Origin: Methanomassiliicoccaceae archaeon
GTDB lineage: Archaea > Thermoplasmatota > Thermoplasmata > Methanomassiliicoccales > Methanomassiliicoccaceae
Assembly (NCBI GenBank): GCA_963728405.1
Contig: CAVSJV010000007.1
Span: forward strand, 128,001 to 192,000
Reading direction: 5' to 3'
Length of the DNA: 64,000 bases
Shown here one piece after another: positions 1 to 36,205 of the stretch (positions are counted from its first letter, which is position 1; each line of letters opens with the position of its first letter). The translations under genes and the position numbers were made by a program. Under the pieces are notes generated by a model. It worked only from the letters and a program-made list of their open reading frames with translations. It made no database searches and had not been told where the DNA came from.

Positions 1-14
1 ACATTTCACCGTAA
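1..14 (+). CDS. 3' end of a gene, probably Sm/Lsm protein (partial)
   Basis: Ends ..ISP-TAA immediately before L37e; Lsm-L37e is a conserved archaeal pair and Lsm proteins typically end in ISP. Confidence 0.5.
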
Positions 15-27
15 AGGAGCTGAGGAA

Positions 28-195
28 ATGAGCAAGGGCACTCCATCAATGGGTAAGAGGTCAAGTGGCAAGTCACACGTTCCCTGCCGCCGCTGCGGGA
101 GGAGCGCATATAATATGCAAAAGAGCGTATGCGCTTCGTGCGGGTACGGCAAGTCTCCGAGGCTGAGATCCTATTCCTGGGCAAAGCAGAAGTAA
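28..195 (+). CDS. rpl37e: 50S ribosomal protein L37e
   Basis: Manual translation MSKGTPSMGKRSSGKSHVPCRRCGRSAYNMQKSVCASCGYGKSPRLRSYSWAKQK; C4 zinc finger. Confidence 0.95.
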   Translation: MSKGTPSMGKRSSGKSHVPCRRCGRSAYNMQKSVCASCGYGKSPRLRSYSWAKQK

Positions 196-199
196 AAAC

Positions 200-1603
200 A
201 TGGACGACAAACCCAAGCATTATTGCGGGGTTGTCGCAATGGCGTTGGACACCAACGCCGCTCCAGACCTAAAACGTGCTTTAAGAATTATACAACACCG
301 GGGCCAGGAGGCCGCCGGGGTCGTTGTTTTTGACAATAATCGTACTTCCTATGTCCGTGGCTCCGGCCTTGTGCATGAGGTCCTGCAGGGCCGGGAGTTC
401 GATGCGCTGAAGGGCAACACCGGCCTGGGTCATGTAAGATATGCCACCACTGGCTCGTCCTGCGCGGAGAACGCTCAACCGATCGTCGTTACCTCCATGG
501 CCGGTGACGTCGCTCTGGGCCATAATGGTGACATCGTCAACTCCGAGAAGCTTCGCACTAAGCTGCAGGGCGACGGGTGGGCTTTCCTTACTACCACCGA
601 CTCGGAGATCATCGTTCGCATTCTTGCCAACGAGCTCAAGCAGAGTTCCGACGTCATCAAGGCGATCCGTTCGACCATGAAGTTCCTCGACGGGGCCTAT
701 TCCTTGGTCATCATGGTTGGCGGCCGGGTGTATGGGGTCAGGGACCCCCTGGGCTTTCGCCCGTTGTGCGTCGGGAAGCTCCCTCATGGTTACTGTATCG
801 CTTCAGAATCATCGGTGCTGAACATCCTGCAGGGTGAGTTCATCAGGGATGTGCTCCCCGGGGAGGTCATCGAGATCACCAAGGAGGGGTTCACATCCTC
901 CAAGATCTCCGGCCCCACCCATCGCGCTCACTGCATGTTCGAATGGGTGTACTTCGCCCGGCCAGACTCGGTCATCGACGGCCGGGAGGTCTACGACGTC
1001 CGCAAGAAGCTGGGGATGATCTTGGCCAAGGAACAGCCGGCCAACGCCGATGTGGTGATCCCGGTGCCGGACTCCGGTCGCGCTCACGCCCTCGGCTACG
1101 CCATGGGCTCAGGCATCCCGTACGACGAGGGTCTGATGAAGAACCGTTATGTCGAGCGCACCTTCATCATGCCCGAGCAGAACCAGCGGGAGGAAGGCGT
1201 AAGCCTTAAGCTCAACCCCATCAAGTCGACCATCTACGGCAAGAACGTCGTTGTGGTGGACGATTCCATCGTTCGCGGTACTACGTTGCGCAAGATCGTG
1301 CAGATGCTCCGGAGGAGCGGAGCCAAAGAGGTTCATGTCCGCATCGGCTGTCCGCCGGTCCGCGCCCCCTGCTACTACGGCATTGACATGAAGACCAGGG
1401 AGCAGTTCATTGCCACCGGGAAGACGGTGCAGCAGATCAGCGACTACCTCACCGCTGACAGCCTGGGTTACACCTCGCTCAAGGGCTTGGAAGAGGCCAT
1501 GGGCATTCCGGAGCACGACCTGTGCATGGCCTGCCTCAACGGCGAGTATCCGACCAACGTTCCGGGTGAGAGGATGCGCTTCCAGAGGCGCCTAGAGGTC
1601 TAG
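200..1603 (+). CDS. purF: Amidophosphoribosyltransferase
   Basis: N-terminal CGV, QHRGQE, GHVRYAT, PRPP motif VVVDDSIVRGTT, Fe-S cysteines. Confidence 0.97.
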   Translation: MDDKPKHYCGVVAMALDTNAAPDLKRALRIIQHRGQEAAGVVVFDNNRTSYVRGSGLVHEVLQGREFDALKGNTGLGHVRYATTGSSCAENAQPIVVTSMAGDVALGHNGDIVNSEKLRTKLQGDGWAFLTTTDSEIIVRILANELKQSSDVIKAIRSTMKFLDGAYSLVIMVGGRVYGVRDPLGFRPLCVGKLPHGYCIASESSVLNILQGEFIRDVLPGEVIEITKEGFTSSKISGPTHRAHCMFEWVYFARPDSVIDGREVYDVRKKLGMILAKEQPANADVVIPVPDSGRAHALGYAMGSGIPYDEGLMKNRYVERTFIMPEQNQREEGVSLKLNPIKSTIYGKNVVVVDDSIVRGTTLRKIVQMLRRSGAKEVHVRIGCPPVRAPCYYGIDMKTREQFIATGKTVQQISDYLTADSLGYTSLKGLEEAMGIPEHDLCMACLNGEYPTNVPGERMRFQRRLEV

Positions 1604-2314
1604 TTTTCTCGAAGCTTTCTTCCCATGGGGACAGGCATACAGGCAAAGGCCGCACACCGGCACCTTTCCACTCGATTCCATCTCCTTGAAATGCAGTTCG
1701 CACGTGCGAGCATCATAACGCGTCTCCCTCGGTTCCGTCGCGACGAAGTTCCTACCGGTGAACGCTTTCTGTGGGCAGATGTCCACACACTCATGACATT
1801 CGCCGCACCGTTGTTCCATGGGCGTCCCGACTGGCAGAGGGGCGTTGGTCAGCACGGTGGTCCACCGCACCCTGGGACCCGCCTCCGGAGTGATCAACAG
1901 GCAGCTCTTGCCAATCCACCCGAGTCCGGCCAGATGCGCGGCCAGTTTGTGCGAGAAGGCGGCACAGACGCGCTCATCATCGACCCTATCTGACGCAGGC
2001 ACCGGGAAGGCCTTGAACCCGGCCCTCTGAATCTCGGAGGCTATCCTTGAGGCGATCGCATCGAGTCTCTGGTTCACGAGGGCATAGGCATGGGTGCGGT
2101 ACTCTACTGCCACAGACCGGATCTCCCGGTTGGGCAGGCGGTCCACGATGGGATGTAGCAGCGCCACGCCGATCGAGATGGCCCTTGGATACTCACCTAG
2201 TTCCTCGCCTCCTTGCCGGATGACCTCGTCCCTGGCCAGCGTCAGGTCGGCGACCCCGTACAGGTCCCCGCCGAGCCGGCGGACCAGCCTCGGAAGCTTC
2301 TCATGTAGTTCCAT
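1592..2314 (-). CDS. Epoxyqueuosine reductase/RdhA-like 4Fe-4S protein
   Basis: SHKLAAHLAGLGWIGKS..GPRVR, CGECHECVDICP, CGLCLYACP. Confidence 0.8.
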   Translation of the reverse strand: MELHEKLPRLVRRLGGDLYGVADLTLARDEVIRQGGEELGEYPRAISIGVALLHPIVDRLPNREIRSVAVEYRTHAYALVNQRLDAIASRIASEIQRAGFKAFPVPASDRVDDERVCAAFSHKLAAHLAGLGWIGKSCLLITPEAGPRVRWTTVLTNAPLPVGTPMEQRCGECHECVDICPQKAFTGRNFVATEPRETRYDARTCELHFKEMESSGKVPVCGLCLYACPHGKKASRKLDL

Positions 2315-2425
2315 GCATTAGCATCGTCCGACCCATAGATAATGTTCTCGAAATCTGGGATGTTGTTCTCGACCCTGTTGCGATGACAAACTTTAATTAC
2401 ATTGATTTCTTTGCCAGATTACATC

Positions 2426-2498
2426 GGGCAGGTAGATCAGCTGGAAGATCGCTACCTTGGCATGGTAGAGGCCGGGGGTTCAAATCCCCCCCTGTCCA
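2426..2498 (+). tRNA. tRNA-Ala(GGC); integration target
   Basis: Acceptor GGGCAGG/CCTGTCC with G3:U70, anticodon arm CTACC-TTGGCAT-GGTAG, T-loop TTCAAAT; AT-rich TATA-like box at ~2391. Confidence 0.95.
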
Positions 2499-3470
2499 CT
2501 CTCACTCTGGCTAACTTCATTTTGTACCATTTGCGGTACAATTAAGGTTTTTTGATACTGGCTGTATTGCACCATCGCTTCGTCCATGTCCTCAAAATCG
2601 AGGCCGAGGTACCTTATTGTCGTCCTCGTATCGGCATGGCCGAATATCTTTGCTATCTTCTCTAATCTGACCCCGGAGCGATACATCATCCGGCCGCAGG
2701 TCCGTCTCAGGTCGTGGTTTGTGAAGTGACATGTCCACCCGCTGCCCGAGATGGTAGAGCGTTTTATCAATCCCCGATTTGGAATAGGTCAGCAGCTCGC
2801 CTCCCCGCTCGTATATGAGCAGATTTTCAGGGACCTTCACCTTGGAATTCTTGGCCCTGGCCTTGGCAATCTCGCCGTTCCTGTAATCCCTAAGCTCCTT
2901 CCCAGTATGGCGAGTCTCGGGGTGCCAGGATATCTGTCGGTGTTTGCCCCCGTTGCGTCCCTTGCCATGTATGTGGATCTTGTTGGCCCGGTTCCGGCCT
3001 GACTGAAATGACGAAGTGGTGAGCCGTGATTAGCTCGATCCGCCTCATCGCCCAGGTCCAGCTCGAAATGGACGATGAACCGTTCCAGGCCTCGGGCCTC
3101 AGACCTGACCATCGCCGCGTCCTTGTCGCTCAGCCACCTTACTCTGGTCGGAGAGGTGTCGCCGAACGATAATCTCCACCTCTTCGCTTCAGGATGACCG
3201 GCCCAGCGCAAGAAGATGAGCATCCGGCCGATCTCATTCTCTTTGTATCGATTGGTGCCGGTGATGAACTCATCCCTCAACCACTCCAGGTCCTCCCGGC
3301 GAATCTTCCGCGGGTTCACCGGCCTCCTTGAAATCGTTGCAGCAGCTTGGAATAGACCGGTGCAAGGTCCATTCATACTGATGTATCGTCAGTTCGCTCT
3401 GTTGCATCTCCCGTTTCTCCCGAATGAACGCGTTTAGCTCCTGCTCGAGAGCGTACATCGGTCTTACCAA
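2480..3470 (-). pseudogene. Tyrosine recombinase/integrase, frameshifted over several ORFs
   Basis: HDLRRTCGR...FGHADTRTTIRYL catalytic H-x-x-R, H, Y in 2480-2770; N-terminal pieces in 2837-3376 and 3270-3470. Confidence 0.88.
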
Positions 3471-3767
3471 CGCAAGCCCTCCATCGAGATAAGGGTATTT
3501 CAGAGCTTATCAAAGATGCCGCCCGTCCCTCGCCGCGTGTTAACTTCTTAACTTTCTCTGCATCTGGCTCATAGGAAAAAAAGTGCAAGGTTAAATCATA
3601 GGTTAATCCTTGGGAAAGGGTGGCCGATGCCATCTAGTCGGCCTCCCCGAACTAAGGGGTACCTCTTCCGGTTGGTTTCGTAGGTAGCGAGGTTATGCTT
3701 CGACTGGGTGTCGATGAATCGGTTTGTTACCGGTTCTTCGTTTTGTCCCATAACCAAGGGTACTGAT

Positions 3768-4901
3768 TCAGTGCTTGTAACCCTCCTGGTGGCAAGCTGC
3801 TCGTTGCGCTTCCGCGAGTTCCCCGTCCCCCTCCATCTCGCACCCGACCCTATCCCTGATTGCGAGGACGGAGATGAGCTGCCTCTTCGGACAGTTCTCC
3901 CATTCTTCTTCGATACTATGCTGGACGCGGGCGAGGAAAGTCAGCATCGTCCTCATCGCGGGCCTCGGCGCTGCTCTTCTTGATGGTCTCTATCAGCTAC
4001 GTCCTCCTGACCGCTCAGGACGGCTGGTAAAAGCAACGACAGCGCGATATCGCGGGGCCGTCGTTCCAATCCCAGGGTTTCGGGTGTCTGCTCGCTCCCG
4101 GACCATCCTGAGAGCCTCATCGAGGAAGCTCGCATCGGTCAGCAGCTTGAGCCGCAGGCAGGCCCACCATTCGCGCCCTAAGCTCCCGATGCTCTGGGCT
4201 GTCGCTCTCCGGCACGATGGCCTTGGGATGCTCGTTCCTGCGCATCGTGAACAGGATTCCTCGGTTCTTGACGTCCTTGGCAGGGTGCGAGCCTTTGAGG
4301 GACAGGGCGGTGAAGCCTCTGGTCTGGTAGTCGCACACCTGGTGACTCTTTCGGTTGCACACCGATAGACTGAAGTACCGTCAAAGGCTCCCTTGACGAT
4401 GTTCATGATTGCTCTTTGTGACTCTTTGTCCAAGTCCTGAAGCTCGTCCAGGGCAAAGGACGGCTCCCAATGGGCTGCGCACCGAAACATGACCGCCGGG
4501 GTGGGTGATCATCATCTTGGTGCCGCGATAGGCGAGACGGGAGCACCTGGTCCAGGACCTGCCCCTTGCCCGATTCGGTGGGGCCGAAGATTAGCAATAC
4601 GGGCGAGCGGTCGATGAACGGGACGAGGTGGCTACCCATCAACCAGGTCGCGAACACCGAGGGCCACGCGCTGTCGGGGAACTCGATATACTGGTCGCTG
4701 CACCGCTGAAGGTCGATGTGCAATCTTCGGAATATCCCTCAGCAGATCCTTAGGTAATATTGGTTTCCGCTGGGTATCTCCAGGGCTGGCGAGAAGAGGA
4801 AAAGTACCTGCTCTCCAGCCAGTCGCCAACCTCCGATAGTTTTGGCGTCCCTCTTCAGGTCTGCTATCGTCCAGTAATTCACATTTGCCATTCCATATCA
4901 A
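3768..4901 (-). pseudogene. P-loop NTPase, primase/helicase-type replication protein (frameshifted)
   Basis: Walker A VLLIFGPTESGKG (4403-4723), Walker B FALDE (3993-4490), continues in adjacent frames. Confidence 0.65.
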
Positions 4902-5159
4902 CGCGACCGCCGGGTTGCCGTCATCGTCAAGATACGGCTCGGCCTAGGTCCAAGGCGAAACCCCCGTCTATCCTTAGGTGCCCTGGTCCTGGGAAGTACC
5001 TCCTCCCTCTCTTGTCACTGAGGTATTCAGGGGAGGAGGAGCTGTCGCTAATTCTATACCATTTTGACACCCTTTCACCACCCTTCAGTTCAGGTTCTTC
5101 TTCCAACTCCCTGACTACTTGGTCGATATCCTTCTCGGGGCGGTTCTATCACCAATCCA

Positions 5160-5573
5160 GGGGATGCTATTCTTCCTCCACTTTTGCCTCGCGTTTGATT
5201 ACTTCATCGGCGGGTATCTTGGGCCGTGGAATGCAGGGAATTTTTCGGGAAGTTCGATAAGCTTGATAATCTCAAGGGCCACTCTCCCACGCTGAGGGTT
5301 CTCGGAATCGTTCACCACCGCCTCCAGAGCGGCAACGGCCTGGGGGACAAGGCTCCTCAGCCGGTCCAGTCCGTGGTCCCATAGCTCCTGGCGTAGTCGG
5401 TTGCAGCTCGGCCTGGAATGCCGGATGATATAAGCGCCATTTGGTCACGGTCTCTCCTGCATACTCCGGTCCTTTAAGCCACCTCGCAGTCAGAGAGGCC
5501 TGTTACCAGCAGGGTGATGGCATTCTGCTGCTCGACGGTCAATGTCCTCAGGCGTGAGATTATGCGTGGTCAT
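5160..5573 (-). pseudogene. Helix-turn-helix protein resembling phage terminase-small/phBC6A51-type HTH (frameshifted)
   Basis: Joined frames read LTVEQQNAITLLVTGLSDCEVA..GV..ETVTKWRLYHPAFQAEL..RLRQELW..LRSLVPQAVAALE. Confidence 0.5.
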
Positions 5574-5579
5574 TTGTAA

Positions 5580-5768
5580 TCATAGCTCCCACCTCCTCCG
5601 GTCGGTACCCCTTGCGCAGTTCGGGATAATCAGATCTCCACTATAAGCAGCCACTCGGGATTGCTCATTGCCCGAGGCCAGCGCACCAGAGATAAGTTGT
5701 TCGATGTACTTGGTTCGAGGGACCAGTCCCCTCCTTGCATCGATTACCTTAAGGAGGCTATCGGGCAA
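5580..5768 (-). CDS. Small ribbon-helix-helix-like DNA-binding protein
   Basis: PDSLLKVIDARRGLVPRTKYIEQLI resembles the CopG/RHH pattern. Confidence 0.45.
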   Translation of the reverse strand: MPDSLLKVIDARRGLVPRTKYIEQLISGALASGNEQSRVAAYSGDLIIPNCARGTDRRRWEL

Positions 5769-5986
5769 GGAACAGCCGAAGGTCTGTTCTTACGGGACAT
5801 TATGCTGACTAATCCGATATGCCTATATCTCAGGTAATGCATGTTATTGTGCATGCAAGTGTCGCCATGAGTAATCACCCAGATTCGCCAACGGTTCCTG
5901 GAAGGAGTATATGATGAGCGAGGCATATTTGAGAATGAAAAGCGGACGGCAACAGTATTGCTCCACTGCCGTACTAGAATACCTTC

Positions 5987-6454
5987 TTGATTGTGAGGGC
6001 GGGAAGGTTCGTAGAAATGAACTGCGAAACCAATTTTATTGTTGGTATACGGAAACGTGGAATAAACCTCCCCGATATGTCAATACTATGGGAGTCACCA
6101 TATCTTCCGCTGACCGACCGGGAGCTTCAGCGGATAATGGATCGTCTTATCGAATACGGCTTCGTGACAACATCGACGAAGCTGCCCGCCTTTGAAAAGG
6201 ACCAAGGGGCGGAGAGAAAAATGACCGCCACTATGCAATCTGCGTCAAGCGCATGGTTTCGAAGGGCGATGGAAAAAAGCCCCAGTATCATGCCATATTT
6301 CACAGACCGATTTCAAATGCTGGAGCTAGTAAAGAAGGAATTGCTTGGGATTGACATCCAGGAGATGACCAAGGAGGAGCTGGAAGAGAAATTGGATTAC
6401 ATTCGGCTCTTCCTATTCATATCTGCAAAGTATAGGGTCTCCAAATGGGATTGA
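5987..6454 (+). CDS. Hypothetical protein (element cargo; N-terminus possibly frameshifted)
   Basis: 155-aa ORF with protein-like composition. Confidence 0.45.
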   Translation: MIVRAGRFVEMNCETNFIVGIRKRGINLPDMSILWESPYLPLTDRELQRIMDRLIEYGFVTTSTKLPAFEKDQGAERKMTATMQSASSAWFRRAMEKSPSIMPYFTDRFQMLELVKKELLGIDIQEMTKEELEEKLDYIRLFLFISAKYRVSKWD

Positions 6455-6619
6455 TGATTTGCTGAAAAGAACAAAAAGCTTAGCCTAGGATAATAAACTC
6501 GTTCTTCTCCCACTTGTATCAATAATAATCACTCACGAGGCCCGCCAAGTATGTCACTTTCAATATGCCAAGCGATAGTTTCTAAACTCGACTTGCATTT
6601 ACAGTCCCCCGTGGAGTAA

Positions 6620-7716
6620 GATAGTCTGGGGTAACAAGACGACCCAAAGTCAAAGCAATAGTTGAAAAAATATTACACCCTCCTCTCTCAAAGGACTGCG
6701 TCGTTAGATCGCTTTATTCTCTGGTACAGGTTCCATTTCTTCAAAAGTTAAGGAAAGGGGGTACAAGGTTCACGCTAATGACTATTTAAAACAGTGTGAA
6801 ATCAGAGCCAAGGTGATACTGCTCATCTCCGAGTCTCCTCCCTTCGAAGGCTTGGATTACCTAAAACCAAGCGGGAAGATGCAAAGGACATTCGAAGAAT
6901 CTAATTATATAAAGGCGATTGAATACCTTAACAGGCTCAAAGGAATTAAGGATTTTTTCTATTATGAATACTCTTCAGAAGGCAGTAAATCACAAGGACA
7001 GTGGGAGAGAAAATACTTCTCTGAATCGAACGCAATGAAGATGAAATATCATACGAAAACAAATTTACGATTGGAGACATGTAGTACGACATAATCACCG
7101 AAAATGAGCATGACATCTCCTTCTGGTCATGTTGATAGAGGCGGCTAATCAGGTCGCTAACATTTCCGGTACATATGGATGCTTTCTAAAAGAATTAGAT
7201 ACGAACGCCATAAATCAGATAAAGTTGTCCCGCTTCACCTTTGTGTAGAGATCGGATCTGACCATATTGTTACTAACGATAATGTCCCTCATAGCGGCTA
7301 AAAATGACCGTTCGGATGTTGTTTATCTCGATCCACCATATACTAAGAGGCAGTACGCAACATACTATCACATTCCTGAAACAATCGCCCTAGAGGATAA
7401 ACCGGAACTCATAGGGAAAACTGGAATTCGTGAGTGGAAGGCAAAGTCCTCAGACTATTGCTATAAACGAAAAGCGATTAAGGCACTGAAGGAACTCACC
7501 AGCGCTTTATGAACCAGGAAGATTTTCCTACATTTCATAGAAGCAATGGCCATATGGAAAAGGACGATATCCTCGATTTGCTAAGTGAATTCGGGCCACG
7601 TAACAGTCCATGATTACTCCTATAGACGATTCAATAGTGGGAGCATAGGGAGTGAAACCTCAACGAAAAATGGAAAGCCTTTGACAGAGTTCCTCTTTTC
7701 CGTAGGGGATACTAAA
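6620..7716 (+). pseudogene. Adenine-specific DNA methyltransferase (D12 class), multiple frameshifts
   Basis: SAM motif (L)FSGTGS..KVHANDY near 6715-6785; YFS..NA; catalytic DVVYLDPPY..QY..YYH in 7267-7512. Confidence 0.8.
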
Positions 7717-7717
7717 A

Positions 7718-8629
7718 ATGGACAAAGTATTGTGGAGAAAACTAACTAAGAACGACATGAACATGCTGATTAATGGCTTGGCCGCTCCTGCTGGTGGAGG
7801 AGGAGGGGCTAAGCACAGTCGCAATAGGTGTTGCTTCGGCGAATTTTCCCATCCACGAGTTCCTTTGGCGTAACCACTTGCGCTGACACCACAATAGATA
7901 CTCAGCCAGTCCCTGGGCTGGTGGGACCAAACCAAATTATCTTTACTTGCAACCCATCTAGGAGGAATGGGGAGTGGATTATATCTCAGCAACACCTGAG
8001 ATAGATACCCCTTTTGGACTGAAAAACATGGATTCCCGGCAGATTTCCCAGATGAAAATTCTCCAAATCGACCAGTGATTTTTATATTTACGGATTTTCT
8101 GGGGAATATCATGTACAGTTTTTGCACGGCCTCTCAGCTGAGTTCGTTGTTGCCCAGAAGTTCAGCTCTGATACTATCCTCAAATAAAAATTCCGGAATC
8201 CTAGATTACGATCGCTGAAATGGCAGCGATTACTAGGGGCCAATGTGCCAATAATCGACAGAAGATATAGCCCAGTAGATACGCCGGATGGGGCCATTGA
8301 GGTACCTGGAACTGTCCCAGGTCCGGCCCCAATGGTGAGCTGTGACACAAGACTAGGGAGAGTACGGGAAACCAAAAAATGCAAAGAAGTGAAGGAGGCC
8401 AACGGGCATAAGTGTGCATTTTGTGGTACCAGTACTCGCCCGCCCACATGCGGTTCCATATTCCGAAGGATGCCATATTTGGCCGTTAAAGGAGCTTGGC
8501 CCGGATGTAAAGGAAAACATCATCGTCCTATGCCCAAACCACCATGTTGAATTCGACTATGGTTCAGTTTCAATAGATCCTGTATCGATGAGGATACAGC
8601 ACATCGACCCTAGCAATCCTGTTAAATAA
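7718..8629 (+). pseudogene. HNH endonuclease (putative restriction nuclease), frameshifted
   Basis: Starts MDKVLWRKLT at 7718; CAFCG then HIWPL..GPD..ENIIVLCPNHHVEFD. Confidence 0.75.
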
Positions 8630-8710
8630 TAAGGTAGTACAAAACGAGCCATCAAATTGATAAAAAAATTGCATCGATTTACCACTACCAAAAATGGAAG
8701 AAAGGTAGCC

Positions 8711-11130
8711 TTATGGCAATATGACCTCCAACTCTTCAAACTTTTTCAATATCATCTCCCTTTGGTATATCGGAAAATTCCCTGAGGACCATTTTTACTT
8801 CTTCTTCGGAGAGCTTGTATAACTTGAAAACGAGAGCATCAATCTCCGATTCTCTACATCCAGTCTGTTCGAGTTATCCCACTTTGCCGGCTCTTCTCGC
8901 CTGGCCACTATCATTCCCCATTCTCTGGAGACTCATTCAATGTGTAAGTCAGTATTGAAACCTTTTCTATTAGCCGATTTTGAAAATGTTTCTGTACCAT
9001 TAACGGTGCCTTCTTGGATATGTCTCAATGGCGGGACAGGTATTTGCCTAAGAATGAACCAATTCAGCGTGATGTTTCCGATTTTCTGTCTTGCTAGGAA
9101 ATCGAACATGAGCTGAATTTATTGTAGTGCACAAGAGGCAGGCTTCAGCCTCTGCAGTACCTTCACCTCTAGAGTTGGTAATTTATTTGACACAACACAT
9201 TTAGGAAGTATAGATGCCCTAACGGTCCTCCTGTTTGTTGCTGCCGTTATGTCCTTGAATGCGAGGTGCCATGGCTTCAAGTTACCCTGCAATCTCATGT
9301 TGCACTGAACAGCATCGAGCGGGATAGCGTACCGAGATTTAACAAGAAACTGTTGGATTGGCCAGTTCCGTAAAAGATGGACATAATTTGATAAGCCGGA
9401 TCGAAGAATATTATCCGGTCTTGGTTACTGATGAACCTGCCCTGTGGTTGTATCTATCAACCATCTTGCCCTCATATACTCTCAGGTATGTGACTCCGTT
9501 GTCAAAAAGCAATCCAGGCTCTTCCCCCATCAAATACCATCGCCTGCAGTGGGTACAAAAATACTTGGAATCGTTGGTCATGTCGGCCTGTCTACGGAAC
9601 CTTACCCCCCAAGACCTGCTCGTCGATACCGTCCGATAGAATGTCGAAATTCTTATGAACCTTAAGGAGGAGGGGGTAATCACCTCCGGGTTCTTTGGAA
9701 ATCATGGATGGTCTTGGTCATAGGGTTTAGGGAGCGTATTTCACTCGCTAGTCAAAGTGAATATGAAGCTCAGTCGAAATATCCTATCTGATTTGGAATT
9801 GTAAAACGATACTCTCAATGGATTTTTACTGGTCCCCTTTATAGCTATTCAGGTATGAGAAGCGGTACCTCCCATCGACATTCGGGAATATCTTTTTTTT
9901 ATTAAGGAAATCAGTGGGACTCAACGATTTCTTGATTATGCATCATGTCGGAAAATAGTTCTTTAAGGTGATAGTCGGTCGCAATTCCGGTTGGTACTAT
10001 CGAGTCCCATCAAGCCACTTTCCACCAACAGTTCCCTACATCTCTCAACAAAGAGTGCGTAATAGTTCAGCTCACCCTTGGATGAAAAGAGGATAGTGGC
10101 CACAGGACTTCAGAAAAGTTGTCCTTTCTTTCACCATTTGCCGATATTTTTCAATTCTCTATATGCACATCATGGTTTGTCGAGTGAGCCAGCCTTTTCT
10201 CGATTTCGGCTTTGCTAGGCGCTGTCCATCCTGCACTCTCTAAGGCCTCTCTGGTTACTACCTTCACCTTCTCCCATGGAGGATTGGTGATGATTATGCT
10301 GAACCCCTTGAGGGTAGGGAACTCATGACACCAGTCAAACGGTTGGTCTGATGTGTAAGGTGCATAACCTGGGAGTGCGGGAAGCGGCTTCCTGAATGTT
10401 GCCCCCACAAGCGAGTCGCCCTGCTTTATGTTTGGAATTACGCCGTCAATTCCGTTGTAGGTGGTTTGCCCAAAACAAAAATCTTGAACCTTTCACAGCG
10501 ATGATATCCTTATCGACACCAAAAATACAATTCCTAACAATCTCTCTTCTTATTGATAATGACTCTTCCTGTGAAAGAGGAGGTGACGATGGCTTCGATC
10601 ACTCCTTTGTGAACGCAAATAATAATCCACCTGTTCCACAAGCGGGGTCCAAAATCTTTAAACTCGTGATATGCTCCAATATCTAGAAGTGTGCCACTTC
10701 TACAGAATTCTGGGTTATTGTTGAGATAATTACTAATCAACCTTTTTGAAAGATTAGCTCCCAATTCCGGCGCTGTGAGATATGTGCCCCCTCGGCGACG
10801 GCTTGTTTTTGATGCTTCGATAACATTTTTTGAGCCATTTTTGAAAGAAGATATGAATTCGACCTGGTCCGATAAAAACTCCCATAACCGGTCTGACTTT
10901 CTACAATCTATGGCACCGAAATGCCCAGCTAGCTCCGTATCAATTGCTTCTGGTAGTTCCAATAAACCTATTTCCTCTGGGATGGGTAATGAGCATATTG
11001 ATTTAATAAGGTATGAAATATAGAATTCTTTCACCAGTGATTTGTCGTTACATTTTTCAGAAAGGATGTTAGCGATGGAAATAGCTTTTGTAATATCTAA
11101 TTCGTTGATTCTGTTATGTGGTTTTTTCAT
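8711..11130 (-). pseudogene. Eco57I/Type IIG-like N6-adenine methyltransferase with TRD, frameshifted
   Basis: GTYLT, LDPACGTG, IITNPPW, GELNYYALFVER, VPTGIATD, C-terminal EIDALVFKLYKL. Confidence 0.8.
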
Positions 11131-11347
11131 TATCGCCCAATGTGCTAGCCTCTAGGATGTTTTCATTCTCAATAAGAATCCCTCTCTTTTTTAGTGACTC
11201 CAAGGATGTGAAGATGGAAGAGCGAGACCTGTCCAATGAATCCGCTAGTTCCCCTATTGTGGGTTTACGCTTCAGGGTTTTCTGCGAGTTCAATGAGTCT
11301 TCTCCATTACGTCGATTTGTGATGGGGTCAATTGTTTTGACATTCAC
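11114..11347 (-). CDS. Small winged-HTH regulator upstream of the MTase
   Basis: TIGELADSLDRSRSSIFTSLESLKKRGILI. Confidence 0.65.
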   Translation of the reverse strand: MNVKTIDPITNRRNGEDSLNSQKTLKRKPTIGELADSLDRSRSSIFTSLESLKKRGILIENENILEASTLGDNEKTT

Positions 11348-11704
11348 GTATCTACAAACAGAATGTCATATACAGCTTTAATATATACTGGTAGTATTTC
11401 TAAATCGGATATTCGGAAGGAATAGAAATCTTATGTTCTTGTTCTTTGAATGGAAAACTAGTAATTGTACACTGCCTAGAACGATGTTCATCTGCTCATT
11501 AATGAAGTAATAATTAACCAATAGTTCAGTTTTAACTAAAATTTAACTTAATTATTTTGATAATAGCCAGTCGTCAATATTGCGATGAATTAGTTAAATA
11601 AGTTAGAAGGAGTAGAGGACCAGCTACGGTTAATCTACTGTGGTTAAGATATTTTCTTAATAAAATATAGCTAAAAAAAGAGATGGAAAGGTGTTTCATG
11701 CGTT

Positions 11705-11833
11705 TCTATCTCGCATATTCCTTATGCTCTCGAGCAGGGCGGTTGTCCCGAGGTTGGTACAAAACGGGGTCGAGCCAGTCGTCTGGAGAGGTAAAAATCC
11801 CCCCCTGTCCACTTCGCAATTATATCTAGATGG
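11705..11833 (+). repeat. Junction repeat 1 (element right end + tRNA-Ala att core + next left end)
   Basis: TCTATC..CTCGAGC..TTGTCCC-GAGGTT-GGTACAAAA..AGCCAG..AAATCCCCCCCTGTCCACTTC..TATATCTAGATGG. Confidence 0.9.
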
Positions 11834-11986
11834 AAAAACTGCGCTTATTAGTCAATAATTCTATATTTTTACTATGAATGGTAAAATGAAGGAATATTCG
11901 CACTGGCATTATTGAGCTAATCACCCTACGGCCATTCACCTTGGTTTTATTGGTATGTAGAGCGATTATCATTCGAAGTCGATCCC

Positions 11987-12754
11987 ATGATGCTTCAATC
12001 CCCTTGGCCGCCCGTCCCGGGGTCTTTTGTCCTCGGTTCTATGAAATCCCCTGTGGCCGTAGCTATTGTGGGTAGGGCTAGATTTGCTCTGTCGCCTGAA
12101 CACTACTGCATGATGGGCCATCTACGATCCGCCAATCTGGGCATCGAGAAGGTCATTGCCAATATCGTCAGCAACCCCCGCATCCGATTCCTGATCGTAT
12201 GCGGTCGAGAGGAAGGCCATCTGCCTGGCGATGCTATAGTCAGTCTGGCCAATAATGGCATCAACGAGGACACGAGCATCGTTGGCACCAGAGCTCAGTT
12301 GCCATTTCTTTCCGACATTACCCGTGAAGCGATCGCCCGGTTCAGGGAGCAGGTCAAGGTCATCGACCTGATGAATCCAAAAGAATCAGATGGTAGCATT
12401 GATTGGCAGGATCCGCCCTTCGATTTCGATGCTGGACGACTAAAGGAGCTGGAGGATGTCATATCTGAGTGTGAACGAACAGACCCGGGTACGCACCCCG
12501 GGGGGCCGATGATCGTTGCCCTACCTAGGCCATTTCATAGCAAGAAGGATATTGGCATGGTCCTCAAGGACCAGGTGGACAGGATCTCCAGCCTTATGCT
12601 CCGCATGCCCAGCGAGAAATTGAACACCGATAGCGATTTGGTGACCATATCATCGGAGTTCGAGATTATCATGGACCCCGTTGACGGGGCGGTTATGGGG
12701 GTGCCCTCCATCGCCTTCTATAAACGAATGAGGGCATACCTGATGGGGAAGTAG
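11987..12754 (+). CDS. Stand-alone MtrA-like (tetrahydromethanopterin S-methyltransferase subunit A domain) protein
   Basis: WPPVPG..SPVAV, NLGIEKVIANIVSNPRIRFLIVCGREEGHLPG, PFL..EAIARFREQV..IDL; no C-terminal TM anchor. Confidence 0.85.
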   Translation: MMLQSPWPPVPGSFVLGSMKSPVAVAIVGRARFALSPEHYCMMGHLRSANLGIEKVIANIVSNPRIRFLIVCGREEGHLPGDAIVSLANNGINEDTSIVGTRAQLPFLSDITREAIARFREQVKVIDLMNPKESDGSIDWQDPPFDFDAGRLKELEDVISECERTDPGTHPGGPMIVALPRPFHSKKDIGMVLKDQVDRISSLMLRMPSEKLNTDSDLVTISSEFEIIMDPVDGAVMGVPSIAFYKRMRAYLMGK

Positions 12755-12776
12755 AGCGGTTTAGATCATTGAACTT

Positions 12777-13044
12777 ATGAACGAATGCCTTCGGGCGCTC
12801 AAACCTGGCGGCCTGAATCTACTCGGTGAGGAGCGACCACGGCCCACAGTTCGGACAAGGAACCCACTATGGCGAGGATATGTACGCTAATGGCCTGGGC
12901 TTCGAGGTGCAGTTCTTCAGCGAGGACAAAATAAAACGGATGGCCAAAGGATACGAACTGTTGTGGATACGTGAGTTCGAGGAGCAGTCACCTCCTTTCC
13001 CAAGGAAGCTGTACGAGGTCGTGCTGAGAAAGCCTAGCAGGTGA
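12777..13044 (+). pseudogene. C-terminal fragment of a class I SAM-dependent methyltransferase
   Basis: ECLRALKPGGLN..SVRS followed by FFSEDKIKR. Confidence 0.55.
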
Positions 13045-13227
13045 GTTCTAAACGGGAGGTTAGAGCGTGCAGTGTACCGTATTATGGGGGGAGGGGAAAA
13101 TTCTTAACTTCCGAATGCTTCCAAATTGTTAATCCGGAAGCTCTTCTTGAACTGCCCCGCATCTAATCTTTTTACTATCTTCCGAACTTCCTACTAAAAA
13201 AAGAAAAGGAAAAAGTTTAGGGCGACA

Positions 13228-13355
13228 CTATCGCATTTCTTCCTTGAGCATCCGAGCAAGTAGCTGTTCTTCCGGATGGTACAAACGAGGGGTTAGCTAG
13301 TCAGTTTGGAGAGTAAAAATCCCCCCCCCGTCCACTTCTAACTATATCCAGATGG
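13228..13355 (+). repeat. Junction repeat 2
   Basis: CTATCGCA..CCGAGC..GGTACAAA..TTAGCTAG..TGGAGAGTAAAAATC9GTCCACTTCTAACTATATCCAGATGG. Confidence 0.85.
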
Positions 13356-13540
13356 TTCGTATTTTGAATCTATAACGGGCTTCCGCAACGTTATTGCCGG
13401 TTCGTCCTTCCAGGCATCCTTTAGTTGCTTACCGGGCACCTTGCTCCATACGGTAGTAGGAGCGTTGCGTCGTCGTTAGGGAATTGTGCCTCAACTGCGC
13501 GGACATGGCCGGGAGGAGGCCCATGTCGATGTTCACGATG
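13338..13540 (-). pseudogene. 3' remnant of a tyrosine integrase (family of the 42084 integrase)
   Basis: VNIDMGLLPAMSAQLRHNSLTTTQRSYY..KQLKDAW..KPVIDSKYEPSGYS* aligns with TLGHSNVKTTQRYY..INKLW..GRIDSLKWLPGYY*. Confidence 0.7.
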
Positions 13541-13563
13541 TGCCATTCCATTTTAAAAACGAT

Positions 13564-14480
13564 CTATACGGAAAATAGTTTGGTGCTTAGGTATTTTTCG
13601 CCCCGGTCAGGTAAAATAGTTACAATAACGCCGGACTTTATCTGCTTGGCTATCTCGATGGCAGCGTACATTGCGGCACCGCTGCTCATACCAACGAAGA
13701 TCCCTTCCTGTTTAACGATCTGACGGGTCATCTCATAAGCTATTTCCGTCTCGACCATGATGGTGATGTCGATCTGGGTAGGGTCATATATCGCCGGGAC
13801 AATGGCTTCTTCCATGTTCTTTAATCCCTGGATATAGTGTCCTTTAACAGGGTGGGCGCTGACTATCTTTATTTGCGGATTATGTTCCTTTAACGCTTTA
13901 CCTACGCCCATTATCGTGCCAGAAGTGCCTAACGCCGATACAAAATAGTCTACTTTGCCTCCAGTTTGCTTCCAGATCTCATCCCCGGTCGTCTTATAAT
14001 GCGCAAGCTGGTTATATTGGTTGGAAAATTGGTCCGGCATGAAGTACTTTTGAGGATTTGCCTTGACCAATTCCCGTGCCTTTCCTAATGGCGCCGTCGG
14101 TGCCGTATTTCCCCTCGCTTAAGGTGACGATTCCGCCGAACGCTTTGATCATCTGTCGTCTCTCTACCGAGACGGTATTCACTCATAACGATCTCTACTT
14201 CGTAACCCTTGATCGCCCCGATCATCGCTAAAGCCACGCCGGTATTTCCCGACGTTGGTTCGATGATAGTTTTATTTTTAGTCAGCGTGCCCTCATCTTC
14301 AGCCTGCTGGATCATGCTTAAGGCAATCCGGTCTTTGATACTGCCAGTAGGATTGAATCCCTCTACTTTGGCATATATCGTCGTGTTCTTGTTCGGATTA
14401 AGCTTGTTTATCCTGACCAAGGGGGTATTGCCGATCGTCTGGAGGATATTTTCTTTAAAATCGGCCGATGGCGTTTTCAT
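13564..14480 (-). pseudogene. Cysteine synthase (O-acetylserine sulfhydrylase CysK/CysM family), frameshifted
   Basis: [46 protein letters not shown]; two ORF halves. Confidence 0.9.
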
Positions 14481-14580
14481 GTTATATTCCCCCTGTGAAA
14501 GGGGAGAGCATTTATAAATAAAATATATCACAGCTAAGAAATATCAGCGACTAGTGCGGTTGTTGAATCCGGTTCAAAAA

Positions 14581-14704
14581 TCTATCGCACGAATTTCTTT
14601 AGTTCTCGAGCGGGTTTGTTGTCCTGAACTTGGTACAAAACAGGGTCAAGCCAGATGTCTCGAGGGCATCAAATCCCCCCCGTCCACTTCTAACAATATC
14701 CAGG
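14581..14704 (+). repeat. Junction repeat 3
   Basis: TCTATCGCA..CTCGAGC..TTGTCCT-GAACTT-GGTACAAAA..AGCCAG..TCAAATC7GTCCACTTCTAACAATATCCAGG. Confidence 0.88.
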
Positions 14705-14887
14705 CAAATATCTTCCGTTGTCAATTAATGGCCCTTGGTGATACATAGGGTGGGGGCTTCCTTTATTGGCCAGGCCTCTTCTAACTATCTCCTGACGGCG
14801 ATCCCCCATTATCCATCACGAGGGGCCTTTCGTGGTCGTTGAGGTGATCGGCCGCACAAACAATTATACGCATCGAATTATGATAAA

Positions 14888-15193
14888 ATGGGTAAGGTGC
14901 ATCATCATATGCCAATTGATTGGGACATGGAAGACTGCGATGAGGATATCACCCCTGACCTCATTGCCGCTCTAAATTCGATCTGGGATGAATTACCTGC
15001 AAGGATGCAGAACAGCATAATATCCTATCTAAATTTTGAGGATAACGGCAAATGGGAGCTAACTATCGAATTTTTCATATCGGAAGAAGGAAAGCCAGTT
15101 TCCCTGATGATGGTTATTGAGAACACTGATGACATCGATAGCGATATAACCTACACAGAATCGATAAACATTGATTTTAATAAAAATGAATAG
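14888..15193 (+). CDS. Small acidic hypothetical protein
   Basis: 101-aa D/E-rich ORF in an AT-rich patch. Confidence 0.55.
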   Translation: MGKVHHHMPIDWDMEDCDEDITPDLIAALNSIWDELPARMQNSIISYLNFEDNGKWELTIEFFISEEGKPVSLMMVIENTDDIDSDITYTESINIDFNKNE

Positions 15194-15609
15194 ATGCACG
15201 CCCAAAGTACTGATCTTCAGAGGCCTACGTTAAATTACTGTCAGGATCAAGGCCGAATTTAACGTAATACCTAGCCCCTGAAGCGCCCCCTCATAACACG
15301 GGGTCAGGGTCACAGGGGGCATCCGCCGTCGGCCGACGGCTCGCGCCGATCGGAGGCAGCACACTCGGTAATCTGGTGCTGCTCGAGGCGGTCAGATTCC
15401 TCTCCGCGGCCGGCGGGGCCTACGGCAGCCCGAGGTACGAAGAACACGGTGCCAACTACGAGCTCAATCTTGCCGCTTTAACAAGGATTAACCCTCGTAG
15501 CTTGTCAGAAGAGCCCCCGGGCCGTCTAATCGGAGAGGTCTCTAGGGGTGGCAAAGATTAATGGGGTCAGTAGCTCAATCTGGACCTGTTTCTAAAGGGG
15601 GGCAGTGTT

Positions 15610-16566
15610 TTGTTCGCTATCGAGGTCAAGCATCTTTCCAAGCAGTTCGATGATTTCCGGGCACTGTCCAATGTGAGCTTCTCGGTGGAGGACGGCGAAA
15701 CATTCGGTTTCCTCGGCCCTAACGGTGCTGGAAAGACCACAACGATCCGTATCCTGACCGGCATATCTGCCCCGACGGAAGGTACGGCCACCATCTTTGG
15801 CCGAGACATCGTTAAGGAGACCATCGCCGCGAGGAAGCTGATGGGCATAGTCCCGGAAACGTCGAACATCTACGACGACCTCACTGCCTGGCGGAACCTG
15901 ATGTTCTCCGCCGAGCTCTATGGCATCACTAGGAGCGTGAGGGAGAAACGCGGAAAGGAACTTCTGGAACTTTTTAGTTTATGGTCGAGGAAGGACGATA
16001 AGGCCCGTGGTTTCTCCAAAGGGATGAAGCGCCGACTAACGCTGGCGATGGGGCTCATTAATGAGCCTCAATTGCTCTTTCTGGACGAGCCTACGTCTGG
16101 ACTGGACGTACAGAGTAACCTCATCATCCGCGAAATCATTCGTGACCTGAACTCGAAAGGGGTGACGGTGTTCCTGACCACCCATAACATCGAGGAAGCC
16201 AACCTCCTCTGCGATAGGGTAGCCATCATAAACAAGGGGCGCATCGCCGCCATCGATTCACCTGAGAAGCTCAAGGGGGCCATTCAGAGCGTGCAATCGG
16301 TGGAGGTCGCGTTCGACCACGCCTCTCTCGATCTGATGGAAGTTCTGAGGGGCATCGCTACGGTCAGCGAGGTCCGAAAGGAAGGGGACAAATATCGGCT
16401 CTTCACCGAGGACCCCTCGACGGTCATCGCCCAGCTCACGGGGTACGCGAACGCCCACGGCAATACTATCGTAAGCTTGAACACCTACGGGCCGAGCCTC
16501 GAGGATGTCTTCATCAAGCTCACCGGCCTGGATGTCCGGACCAGGGGGGTGAGGACCGTTGAATGA
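15610..16566 (+). CDS. ABC transporter ATP-binding protein (DrrA-like)
   Basis: GPNGAGKTT, FSKGM, LFLDEPT. Confidence 0.92.
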   Translation: MFAIEVKHLSKQFDDFRALSNVSFSVEDGETFGFLGPNGAGKTTTIRILTGISAPTEGTATIFGRDIVKETIAARKLMGIVPETSNIYDDLTAWRNLMFSAELYGITRSVREKRGKELLELFSLWSRKDDKARGFSKGMKRRLTLAMGLINEPQLLFLDEPTSGLDVQSNLIIREIIRDLNSKGVTVFLTTHNIEEANLLCDRVAIINKGRIAAIDSPEKLKGAIQSVQSVEVAFDHASLDLMEVLRGIATVSEVRKEGDKYRLFTEDPSTVIAQLTGYANAHGNTIVSLNTYGPSLEDVFIKLTGLDVRTRGVRTVE

Positions 16567-17317
16567 GCACATTTGGTATGATCAGGTAATATCCGAGATC
16601 AAGGCTGCCTGGGCCATCGCCAAGAAGGACATGAAGATCTACTACATCAAGCCGAACATCATCGTTTCCGGGGTGCTATTCCCACTTTTCATGTTCCTGG
16701 CCTTCTCGGTCAGCAACACCTCAGGCCCTTCGGTCCTGATACCCGGTCTGATCGCCATCACCATTCTATTCTCCGCATCATCGATCGAGCCGGTATCCAT
16801 CCCCATAGAGCGGAGGACGAAGACCTTCGATCGTCTCCTCTCAGCGCCGGTGTCCCTGAATGCGGTCGTTCTGGGGGAGAGCTTGAGCGGCTTCTTGTAC
16901 AGTCTGGGCATCGCCTTCGTTCCATTGGTCGCTGGGTTCCTGGTCTTCAGTGCGTCCATCGTGGACGTCCTCCCCCTCGTCCTTGGGCTCCTCTTGACCT
17001 CGTTCTGCATCGCCTCTATGGGAACGCTGTTCGCGGCCTATCCCACCGAGAGCCCCGGGGACATCATGTCCATGCTAAACGTGGTCCGGCTGCCACTGGT
17101 CTTCATCTCGGGAGTATTCATCCCTCTGGCGTCGATACCGGCCATCGGCCAGTTCGTGACCTACTTCTCCCCGCTCACCTACGGTTACGACCTCATCCAC
17201 GCCGCTTATTCCGGTACATCGCACTTCGATCCCATCATCGACGTGCTGATGTTACTGGTCTTCATCGTGTTCTTCCAACTGCTGGCCGACCGACTCTATA
17301 AGAGGTACAACGCCTGA
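16559..17317 (+). CDS. ABC-2 type permease
   Basis: About six TM segments, ERR..TFDRLL, FISGVFIP, SPLTY; overlaps the ATPase gene. Confidence 0.9.
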   Translation: MNEHIWYDQVISEIKAAWAIAKKDMKIYYIKPNIIVSGVLFPLFMFLAFSVSNTSGPSVLIPGLIAITILFSASSIEPVSIPIERRTKTFDRLLSAPVSLNAVVLGESLSGFLYSLGIAFVPLVAGFLVFSASIVDVLPLVLGLLLTSFCIASMGTLFAAYPTESPGDIMSMLNVVRLPLVFISGVFIPLASIPAIGQFVTYFSPLTYGYDLIHAAYSGTSHFDPIIDVLMLLVFIVFFQLLADRLYKRYNA

Positions 17318-17584
17318 GCGGCCAGTGGAGCGCCGTTACTCGCCGACAGCCATTGGGGGGCGGGTGTCGCTGCCATCCATGAAGGTGGCTCGGACGAAAT
17401 GGGCCTGTACTGCCTATCCGGATCCCCTCGATGGGCGCGAGAACACCAAGACGGTCATCGACCGGGGCCTGGACCTGGCAAAGTCACCGGGTGCCGGGGT
17501 CACCGCCCGGAGCGTCGACGTGGCCGAAGCGGCCGTCGGGAATGCGTTCCGCTCTGTACTGGTCGTTCGCATACCGAGCAAAGG

Positions 17585-19039: not shown

Positions 19040-19378
19040 GGGTTGACCTGCATCATTGGAAGGTACGGCCCTTGGACCGGCCTATCAACTGTCATGAGTT
19101 TTGTTCCTAAGGTCGAGCAGCCGGACCGGGGCTCACTGACGCCGACAGCCATCGTACCACCTTTCACTCCCCATCTATTGGAGCCAGCGAGGTCATTTAT
19201 TTTGCTTTCAGTTCGGCCATATTGTGAGGAGGGCACAATGCTCAGGATCCGGAGCTAAAAAATGCTAGAGTGGCAAAGGTTGGTCTGATCTGGTTCTCCA
19301 GGCCCGTACGCTTCCTCTGCCCCTGGTCTGATATCATCCTTCTGCTCCTTTTTTTTCGGTTCTTCATTTCGGCGCCGA

Positions 19379-20194
19379 TCACTTGACCTCTGACCATGGC
19401 GCGTCGAGGAACGACATGGCAGGGCCAACCAGCCCGGGAGAAGATAGGACATCATAGTGGGTCATCCCTGGAAGAATGGCGAGCCGCGCCGTAGGCCTTC
19501 CGGAACCGTCCAAGCCAGCGTCCCGCTGCCCACCGCCGAGCAGCGCGAAGAACTCCATTATGTGCCCCAAGCGGACGGCGTCTGCATCGGCGAAGACGAT
19601 CATCATTGGTGACCTGATCTCCGCTACGTCCTTCGACCAGTCATAGTCCTGCCTCAGCAGCTCCCCCAGCCTGGTGAAAAGCACCGCCCAATCTGCGTCA
19701 GGATAAAGCCGGTCTAGAGGGCTCTGCTTCATGTACTTCGCAGCTTCGGGGCCCATCTGGGCCATGTTCTCTAGGACCTCAGGATACCAGCCGTCACGTT
19801 TGAAGGGAGTGGAAATGATCACAAGTTTGCTCACCGCCTCCGGATGCCGGATGGCGGTCTGCAGGCTGACCCCGCCGCCCAGCGAGTAGCCCATGATGTC
19901 GGCACTGGCGATGCCGAGATGCTTCATCAGAGCGGCGATGTCATCGGCCATCTGCTCGAAACGGAGCGGGCGATCGAGGGTAGCCGTACGTCCATGGCCT
20001 TCCAAATGGACGGTTATGACCTGCCTGTTCTCCGAGAGCTTCGGCAAGATGGGGTCGAACATCTCGCTCGCACTTACGCCGCCATGAAGGAGGATCAACG
20101 GTCTTCCGGACCCGTGGGCCTCATAATACATATTGAGGCCGTTCACCGATGCATAGCTGCCTACGATCTTAGTTGGTGTGCTCATCGCCCTCAT
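19379..20194 (-). CDS. Alpha/beta hydrolase
   Basis: LLHGG, GHGRT, GYSLGG nucleophile elbow. Confidence 0.9.
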   Translation of the reverse strand: MRAMSTPTKIVGSYASVNGLNMYYEAHGSGRPLILLHGGVSASEMFDPILPKLSENRQVITVHLEGHGRTATLDRPLRFEQMADDIAALMKHLGIASADIMGYSLGGGVSLQTAIRHPEAVSKLVIISTPFKRDGWYPEVLENMAQMGPEAAKYMKQSPLDRLYPDADWAVLFTRLGELLRQDYDWSKDVAEIRSPMMIVFADADAVRLGHIMEFFALLGGGQRDAGLDGSGRPTARLAILPGMTHYDVLSSPGLVGPAMSFLDAPWSEVK

Positions 20195-36109: not shown

Positions 36110-36205
36110 GCTAAAACCTCGTCGTCCTTTCCGACCTGACGGTATTCGGCGTATATGATACTTGATAAAATCGCGGCACGGGCCGCTTAGAAAGATGGTG
36201 GTGAG

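Follow-up and report, generated by a model that had tools for sequence, protein, structure and literature searches.

Tandem accretion of integrative elements at a small RNA gene is known from several groups. For bacterial elements, including those of Streptococcus, the available text of PMC5704250 gives a three-step scheme: an element integrates, decays to an integrase-less cis-mobilizable element (CIME) flanked by attachment (att) sites, and is then accreted onto by a newcomer. The accessible parts of PMC3146451 describe tandem islands at ssrA in Dehalococcoides that are bounded by 20-bp repeats; 15 of these have no integration module and are discussed as possible cis-mobilizable elements. 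Tycheposons of Prochlorococcus, in the available portion of their description (bioRxiv 10.1101/2020.12.28.424599), have nothing but partial tRNAs between them, and degenerate integrases and stray tRNA pieces lie deeper in the island. For archaea, an excerpt of PMC8371274 states that one locus can take up several elements in tandem and that integrated elements often have no integrase, presumably having lost it, and the available part of PMC6563490 mentions arrays formed by reuse of one site. Here we describe an array of this kind downstream of the tRNA-Ala(GGC) gene in a 64,000-nucleotide stretch (the window) of a Methanomassiliicoccaceae archaeon (GenBank assembly GCA_963728405.1, contig CAVSJV010000007.1, positions 128,001 to 192,000). 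The region is likely to be an island that arose by repeated tyrosine recombinase-mediated integration at the 3′ end of the tRNA gene, followed by erosion. Genomic islands of this kind are known, and the array adds a further example without revealing a new recombination system. Such arrays were not described for Methanomassiliicoccales in the literature that we searched, whose limited coverage makes this weak evidence of absence.

The draft genome (G000) has 18 contigs, a size of 2.73 Mb, and an estimated contamination of 4%. The window is part of contig 7, and the contigs of G000 are written C4, C7, C11, C12, C13, C17, and C18. We detected mcrA in G000, which identifies the organism as a methanogen; MtmB was looked for in G000 and was not found. 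Relatives are labeled G002 to G260, with f3 denoting another family of the same order; the nearest species is G003, which is 87% identical in the purF region. Two families of tyrosine integrase, type A and type B, occur in the array, and its elements and junctions are numbered E1 to E4 and J1 to J3, respectively. Integrase, PALP, and MtrA family assignments were made with Pfam, NCBIfam, and PHROGs.

The last 19 nt of tRNA-Ala(GGC) recur as an exact copy in the core of J1. The remaining two distal copies, which form the cores of J2 and J3, carry 1 to 3 changes: J2 has 3 ungapped mismatches (a longer C run and a T-to-C change), and J3, which is one base shorter, was missed by a gapless scan and recovered by a repeat search (families D2 and D3). 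The gapless scan, allowing up to 3 mismatches, gave 3 matches of the four sites, compared with 0.06 expected, and none of 100 shuffles reached 3. Direct repeats of the tRNA 3′ end at distal element boundaries, as in genomic islands, are thus present in three copies, one of them exact.

Each core lies within a longer junction. J1, J2, and J3 were alignable over ~135 nt with identities of 63 to 77% (76.6% over 111 nt for J3 versus J1), and an nhmmer profile of the three scored its own copies at E values of 2e-39 to 8e-37. J1 was also 85.5% identical over 76 nt to the junction that ends a type-A element in G015. An earlier model-made reading of the window from its letters and open reading frames (ORFs) alone, which we call the sequence-only reading, had placed the recurring tRNA-Ala 3′ end at three downstream sites, each inside one shared junction of ~125 bp, and had taken the locus for a tRNA-anchored accretion site for site-specific integrative elements. 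The positions, the homologous junctions, and the integrase remnants described below all bore this out.

The left arm of the junction, ~90 nt long, contains three conserved blocks: a CTCGA-type block, a 7-bp hairpin, and an AGCCAG hexamer. In 13 arms from four genomes, pairing in the hairpin is kept while the stem sequence varies. The share of paired cells was 78.9%, compared with 63.9% in shuffles (none of 500 reached the observed value) and 29 to 56% in slid controls, and 5 of the 7 pairs change on both sides. This covariation would fit a structure or, equally, a palindromic binding site specific to the element. We rejected the possibility that the junction is a coding region; coding sequence occurs only to the right of the core, in the integrase tail, and the left arm is conserved in blocks without a reading frame.

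Integrase sequence was found on the right side of every core. Sixty-five type-B integrase codons follow the J2 core, and shorter tails with the same Gly-Tyr ending follow J3 and J1. In the intact homologues that we read (a type-B integrase on C18 and an integrase at tRNA-Gly on C13), the same tail abuts the core. The 16 to 20 nt to the right of each core are therefore conserved because both integrase families end inside or beside the core. The gene adjoining the att site at the tRNA is a type-A integrase pseudogene, and type-B remnants stand at J1 to J3. Between the tRNA and this integrase, the hexamer and hairpin are inverted relative to the J1 left arm, as expected of the two arms of one attP. 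Each junction appears to be a hybrid att site in which the core joins the far arm of a newer element to the integrase end of an older one, and the array would accordingly read tRNA(attL)-E1-J1-E2-J2-E3-J3-E4 stub (Table 1).

From this anatomy we infer in which order the elements arrived and that they entered next to the tRNA. An incoming attP, holding a copy of the tRNA 3′ end, would recombine with the intact tRNA gene, and each newcomer would push the older elements downstream, so that every internal junction would become a hybrid. From newest to oldest, the elements would be E1, with its type-A integrase and restriction-modification fragments, followed by E2, E3, and E4. E2 would have carried a cluster of MtrA-like, DUF169, and methyltransferase genes, and E3 would have carried a foreign cysteine synthase gene. 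Deletions and frameshifts would later have left no integrase intact and would have eliminated or disrupted most cargo. The array shows how one methanogen tRNA gene collects, stacks, and erodes foreign DNA.

Table 1. Features of the tRNA-Ala(GGC) array, in window coordinates.
Feature	Position	Strand	Evidence or remark
tRNA-Ala(GGC)	2426-2499	+	ARAGORN; Rfam tRNA, 66 bits; 3′ end (2477-2500) is att core and attL of the array
Type-A tyrosine integrase pseudogene of E1	2483-3470	-	tblastn, Pfam; last codons overlap tRNA 3′ end
E1, fully decayed, 9.3 kb	2500-11813	.	Open frames, Pfam fragments, GC
D12 N6-adenine DNA methylase fragment	7267-7512		In E1; Pfam
HNH nuclease fragment	8414-8629		In E1; Pfam
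Eco57I-like methylase fragment	10151-10408		In E1; Pfam
HTH protein fragment	11114-11347		In E1; Pfam
Junction J1	about 11700-11835; arm 11705-11794, core 11795-11813	+	Alignment, profile
E2 remnant, 1.5 kb	11814-13336	.	MtrA-like gene, methyltransferase tail, J2 arm and core
Terminal integrase codons of E2 (few, decayed, stop lost)	about 11814-11840		Translation alignment
MtrA-like gene, intact	11987-12754	+	Pfam MtrA, 4.6e-38
Class I SAM methyltransferase, last ~85 codons only	12765-13044	+	Homology to G002 gene
Junction J2	13222-13357; arm 13228-13317, core 13318-13336		Alignment, profile
Type-B integrase 3′ remnant, start of E3	13337-13536	-	tblastn
Cysteine synthase (cysK/cysM type) pseudogene, foreign allele	13564-14531	-	Pfam, alignment, composition
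Junction J3	14576-14706; arm 14581-14671, core 14672-14688	+	Alignment, profile
E4 stub, fourth and oldest element by the proposed order; last type-B integrase codons	14689-14800	-	Translated tail; tblastn weak

All four elements are decayed. When the E1 integrase was compared by tblastn with its intact 335-amino-acid (aa) homologue in G015, residues 1 to 335 were covered in four frame segments, and the gene therefore has three frameshifts; its C-terminal ORF matched Pfam Phage_integrase at 2.5e-10. The longest open frame in E1 has 205 codons. An alternative genetic code was considered for E1 (2500-11700) and rejected, since reading TAG, TGA, or TAA as sense restored no long frames. GC content is 0.36 to 0.48 over 5.5 to 15 kb, compared with 0.55 to 0.61 in the flanks. 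The genes on either side of the island, purF (467 aa) and the ATP-binding cassette (ABC) transporter genes, are intact, and the damage in the island is therefore local decay rather than sequencing noise.

The contents of the smaller modules agree with the sequence-only reading, which had listed an MtrA-like gene with a methyltransferase fragment in one and cysteine synthase in the other. To this we add an integrase 3′ remnant after every junction, the broken state of the integrase in the 9.3-kb element, and the finding that the cysteine synthase gene is a pseudogene. G002 has a complete cluster of MtrA-like, DUF169, and 240-aa methyltransferase genes, which indicates that ~1.8 kb has been deleted from E2. 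The stub that opens E3 matched (13344-13536, minus strand) residues 332 to 396 of the 397-codon integrase at C18:19024-20214, with 72.7% and 46.9% identity in two frames, and its translation aligned with the C terminus of that protein down to a Gly-Tyr-x-stop tail. The reverse translation of E4 ends in the same way as the C18 and C13 integrases (Gly-Tyr-x-stop), with a weak tblastn match (E value, 0.38). As in CIMEs, only integrase stubs are left in E2 to E4. The arms and cores that would have to act as functional attL and attR are recognizable, the J2 and J3 cores being 1 to 3 changes away from the tRNA. The small modules appear to be fossils of full-size elements rather than units designed small, because they retain integrase 3′ stubs, the methyltransferase gene is cut to ~85 codons, and cysK has two frameshifts. 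Elsewhere in G000, an 86% identical paralogue of the MtrA-like gene lies ~186 kb further along the contig (C7:325830-326610) and is frameshifted, yet the island copy is intact; a third, distant MtrA-like paralogue (44% aa identity) is on C17.

Relatives vary in what occupies the site. The order purF, ferredoxin-like ORF, and tRNA-Ala(GGC) was conserved in all 10 loci that were oriented (same genus or family), and the tRNA core was kept in all 11 relatives' loci that were read. The sequence after the core has a type-A end in 2 relatives (besides the window), a type-B end in 3 (one of them diverged), and other sequence in 6. The spacing between the tRNA and cysK ranges from 0.3 kb in G002 through 4.3 kb in G005, 6.0 kb in G004, and 9.3 kb in G008 to ~22 kb in G015. 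G002 has no element between the two genes and is a near-empty site, so that occupancy of the locus is variable. In G003, intact metabolic and transport genes occupy the 4.4 kb after a J2-like core; then come cysK, another core, and 3.5 kb more, after which stands a homologue of the 101-aa ORF that begins at window position 14888. Content thus differs between G003 and the window, which indicates island turnover on a species time scale. The content of the locus differed in every relative examined.

Further observations concern the right side of the island. The 101-aa ORF (14888-15193, plus strand) is acidic and had no Pfam or PHROG match; its homologue in G003 is 84% identical in aa sequence and likewise lies downstream of cysK, 3.6 kb away. 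In the relatives that proved to have them, the ABC transporter genes (15610-17317) stand apart from tRNA-Ala, at a distance of 135 kb in G009 and on a separate contig in G002, so that this lineage has undergone a rearrangement at the island's right border.

The elements belong to a family that extends across the genome. The sequence-only reading had suggested a profile of the junctions and a genome scan; the J1-J3 profile detected ~15 further arm-plus-core copies in G000, with cores fitting tRNA-Ala(TGC) or tRNA-Ala(CGC), many of them on short low-GC contigs or clustered next to integrase genes, whole or in pieces. Integrase remains also follow each of the three tRNA-Ala genes in G000: a frameshifted type-B gene (C7:358968-360137) follows tRNA-Ala(TGC), and a type-A 3′ fragment (C13:150753-151044) follows tRNA-Ala(CGC). 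Two type-B integrases, the one on C18 and one at C4:277868-278899, are apparently uninterrupted, and both are at TGC-type cores. No intact integrase stands beside a GGC-type core anywhere in G000. GGC-type cores are confined to the array except for a fifth candidate (C18:39048-39062, a 15-nt match), which we rejected as a chance look-alike: it falls where a histidine kinase gene encodes its H-box. A search for a type-B integrase locus among the genome contigs gave 32 pattern matches, none of which was confirmed. The C18 type-B copy has a full left arm across its core and resembles an intact attP or a tandem-copy junction. For the family that occupies all three tRNA-Ala genes, these data define an att design of an arm with a covarying hairpin and a fixed hexamer, a core, and an integrase 3′ end, which can help to delimit islands in related genomes.

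We compared the array with the described systems. Like the accreted CIMEs of Streptococcus and other bacteria, as presented in the available text of PMC5704250, it has a tRNA 3′ end as its target, hybrid att sites, integrase-less remnants that keep recognizable attL and attR, and stacked newcomers. Unlike them, it has an archaeal host, and no conjugation genes were seen. The same text reports experimental cis-mobilization of some bacterial CIMEs, whereas the array is known from sequence and its neighboring integrase is broken. The Dehalococcoides islands, in the accessible parts of PMC3146451, are similar in their tandem arrangement at one small RNA gene, in short direct repeats of its 3′ end with extra conserved bases, and in their metabolic genes; they use a serine recombinase and transfer-messenger RNA (tmRNA), whereas the array involves two tyrosine recombinase families and a tRNA, and its modules are far smaller and visibly eroded. 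Tycheposons, so far as the available portion of their description goes, share tRNA targets, partial-tRNA separators, newcomers that push older elements inward, fragmented integrases, and metabolic cargo in the form of nutrient assimilation genes. They differ in being bacterial and in that excised forms were shown by PCR. Tycheposons also have hallmark replication genes, a feature for which E1 is too decayed to be informative.

Two other classes do not describe the locus. SSV-type integrases split their own gene upon integration, and the two families of the array do not: the core overlaps the last codons only, an uninterrupted 335-aa integrase stands beside the tRNA in G015, and a 397-codon open frame stands beside the core on C18. 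An integron would have intI, attI, a promoter, and promoterless attC cassettes; here, there is no intact integrase, and the sites are tRNA-derived cores with arms rather than attC. In addition, the cysK segment bears its own conserved upstream region, unlike promoterless integron cassettes, and the type-B integrase scored 20 bits against the NCBIfam integron-integrase model, which has a cutoff of 265.

The cysteine synthase gene (cysK) carries a record of horizontal movement. In the window copy, the N and C halves of PALP are in separate ORFs; compared with three other copies, the gene has a 1-bp insertion at both 14079 and 14176, neither of them in a long homopolymer. The cysK genes of G000 and G003 have a GC content of 0.47 to 0.48 and a third-codon-position GC content of 0.60, compared with 0.54 to 0.61 and 0.71 to 0.93, respectively, in congeners. 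Third-codon identity was 72% to G020, a member of f3, versus 46 to 57% to congeners; in the purF control against G020, it was 43%, with 68% identity at the protein level. When cysK was compared by blastn with 261 genomes of the order, the best match was G003 (91%), and those after it were all from f3: G231 (89%), G260 (88%), G020 (87%), and further matches at 86, 86, and 84% and lower. Other congeners reached at most 81%. We had considered cysK as a plain native neighbor of the tRNA and dropped this for G000 after the composition and third-codon results.

Among the cysK loci that were fetched, the gene lies downstream of tRNA-Ala(GGC) in 9 of 19 other genomes from two families, and the adjacency is therefore probably ancestral. 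An element would have picked up cysK, plausibly because the gene adjoins the attachment site in the donor lineage, and would have carried it into the ancestor of G000 and G003, where the native copy would then have been lost. Thus, a foreign cysK allele seems to have replaced the native one, arriving with an integrative element; this would be a concrete case of such replacement for a core metabolic gene. Other copies are also associated with att sites. In G260, from another family, cysK follows a type-A element and has a full arm-plus-core junction on either side, and in G003 an att core stands on its far side. G000 itself has an intact cysK copy (304 aa) at C13:119607-120627 and a near-duplicate on C11 that has a 1-bp deletion of its own. 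Their identity to the window copy is 95.7% and extends over 1025 nt, exactly the gene plus its upstream region; they are flanked by CGC-type cores (one degenerate) and a type-A integrase fragment, with nothing in common with the window flanks. The att flanks of the within-genome copies being unrelated, the present module was not what moved, and the later copy apparently did not travel as the att-bounded unit now seen.

Several observations weigh against the interpretation of the locus as a stack of successive integrations that brought in a foreign cysK. Arms and integrase types do not pair neatly: the J1 arm, from a type-A element, and the J3 arm, from a type-B element, are 77% alike, which is more than J2 and J3, both type B. 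A native neighbor with an att junction (J3) on its far side is not predicted by simple accretion. The cysK protein tree did not resolve, with 1 of 11 inner branches well supported and that one irrelevant, and its one pertinent grouping, of G000 with two congeners, G003 and G010, falls below thresholds (88/96); the case for a foreign origin is therefore built on nucleotide and third-codon similarity and on composition. We found no native cysK copy or deletion scar to prove replacement. Immediately before cysK, on its upstream side, the sequence of G003 matches that of the C13/C11 copy rather than that of the window copy, which makes an unexplained mosaic. Finally, the array was read from assembled sequence alone, and excision or heterogeneity may occur.

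Reading the small modules, above all that with cysK, as cis-mobilizable would mean that they lack an integrase and have usable att sites, and that they are excised, reshuffled, or cotransferred in trans. None of the three junctions has lost its arm, its core, or the beginning of the arm on the integrase side. cysK is bracketed by att sites in the window, in the second G000 copy, and in G260, with a far-side core in G003, and its allele crosses families, as judged from the third-codon identity to G020 and the order-wide matches. The genome also has two apparently intact type-B integrases, but these are at TGC-type rather than GGC-type cores, and the adjoining E1 integrase is dead, with three frameshifts, so that no functional neighbor exists now. 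The J2 and J3 cores are altered, the genes in the modules are broken or truncated, and the cysK copies of G000 differ in their att flanks and integrase remnants. Moreover, the integrase stubs in E3 and in its G003 equivalent indicate that the ancestor had its own integrase. We therefore consider mobilizable modules unlikely. Of the cargo modules proposed by the sequence-only reading, historical horizontal movement of the cysK segment stands, and present-day cassette-like mobility in the array is doubtful. Its suggestion of purpose-built miniature elements gave way to deletion remnants with integrase stubs, and an integron cassette-like function fits poorly with mutated cores in 2 of 3 copies, a broken adjacent integrase, and no intact integrase at a GGC-type core. 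Nor is the system undescribed, as that reading had proposed, since tandem accretion with decayed att-flanked remnants was already on record. A broader version, speculative and in our view improbable, is that the tRNA-Ala genes of the order are shared docking sites, with two integrase types and one arm design, and that leftovers including the ~1.4-kb cysK module are still moved in trans or piggybacked. If so, a housekeeping sulfur assimilation gene would be passing from family to family in a small unit bounded by att sites, and archaea would have a counterpart of CIMEs or of tycheposon cargo modules.

Two explanations would dispense with integration. Rather than att sites, the junctions could be copies of a chromosomal functional element whose end resembles tRNA-Ala by chance, such as a gene for a small RNA or a regulatory unit similar to a tRNA, as the covariation of the 7-bp hairpin across 13 copies and an arm common to elements with different integrase types might suggest. 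But a covarying palindrome is equally expected of an element-specific binding site, and an Rfam scan of positions 1 to 20000 (E values up to 1) returned no family except tRNA. Integrase codons follow every copy in the window, other copies lie beside integrase genes or fragments, and the core always fits one of the host's tRNA-Ala genes, which makes this explanation very improbable. Alternatively, the repeats could stem from misassembly, which the sequence-only reading had also raised, or from a recent segmental duplication: the genome is a draft in 18 contigs with an estimated 4% contamination, and part of one contig recurs as a 97% copy in a second contig of 10.9 kb. Against this, the junctions are only 63 to 77% alike, the segments between them are unrelated, and orthologous junction pieces occur in G003 and G015. 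The copies have diverged and are therefore not assembly duplicates; we give this explanation almost no credence. Repeated integration at the tRNA followed by erosion remains the reading that we favor.

The near-copied contigs and a second integrase locus were observed alongside the array. C11 (10.9 kb) is a 96.8% copy of part of C13 (compared with C13:116072-125000), and C12 is 98% identical over 2.7 kb to the same region; these near-copies could be strain variants in the draft or true repeats that break the assembly. Within the window, a partial tyrosine integrase frame of 211 codons (42054-42686, plus strand; Pfam Phage_integrase, 1.6e-6) lies ~3 kb past a tRNA-Glu gene (38986-39059), with a tRNA-Ser gene (36205-36289) further upstream, and it may belong to another island.

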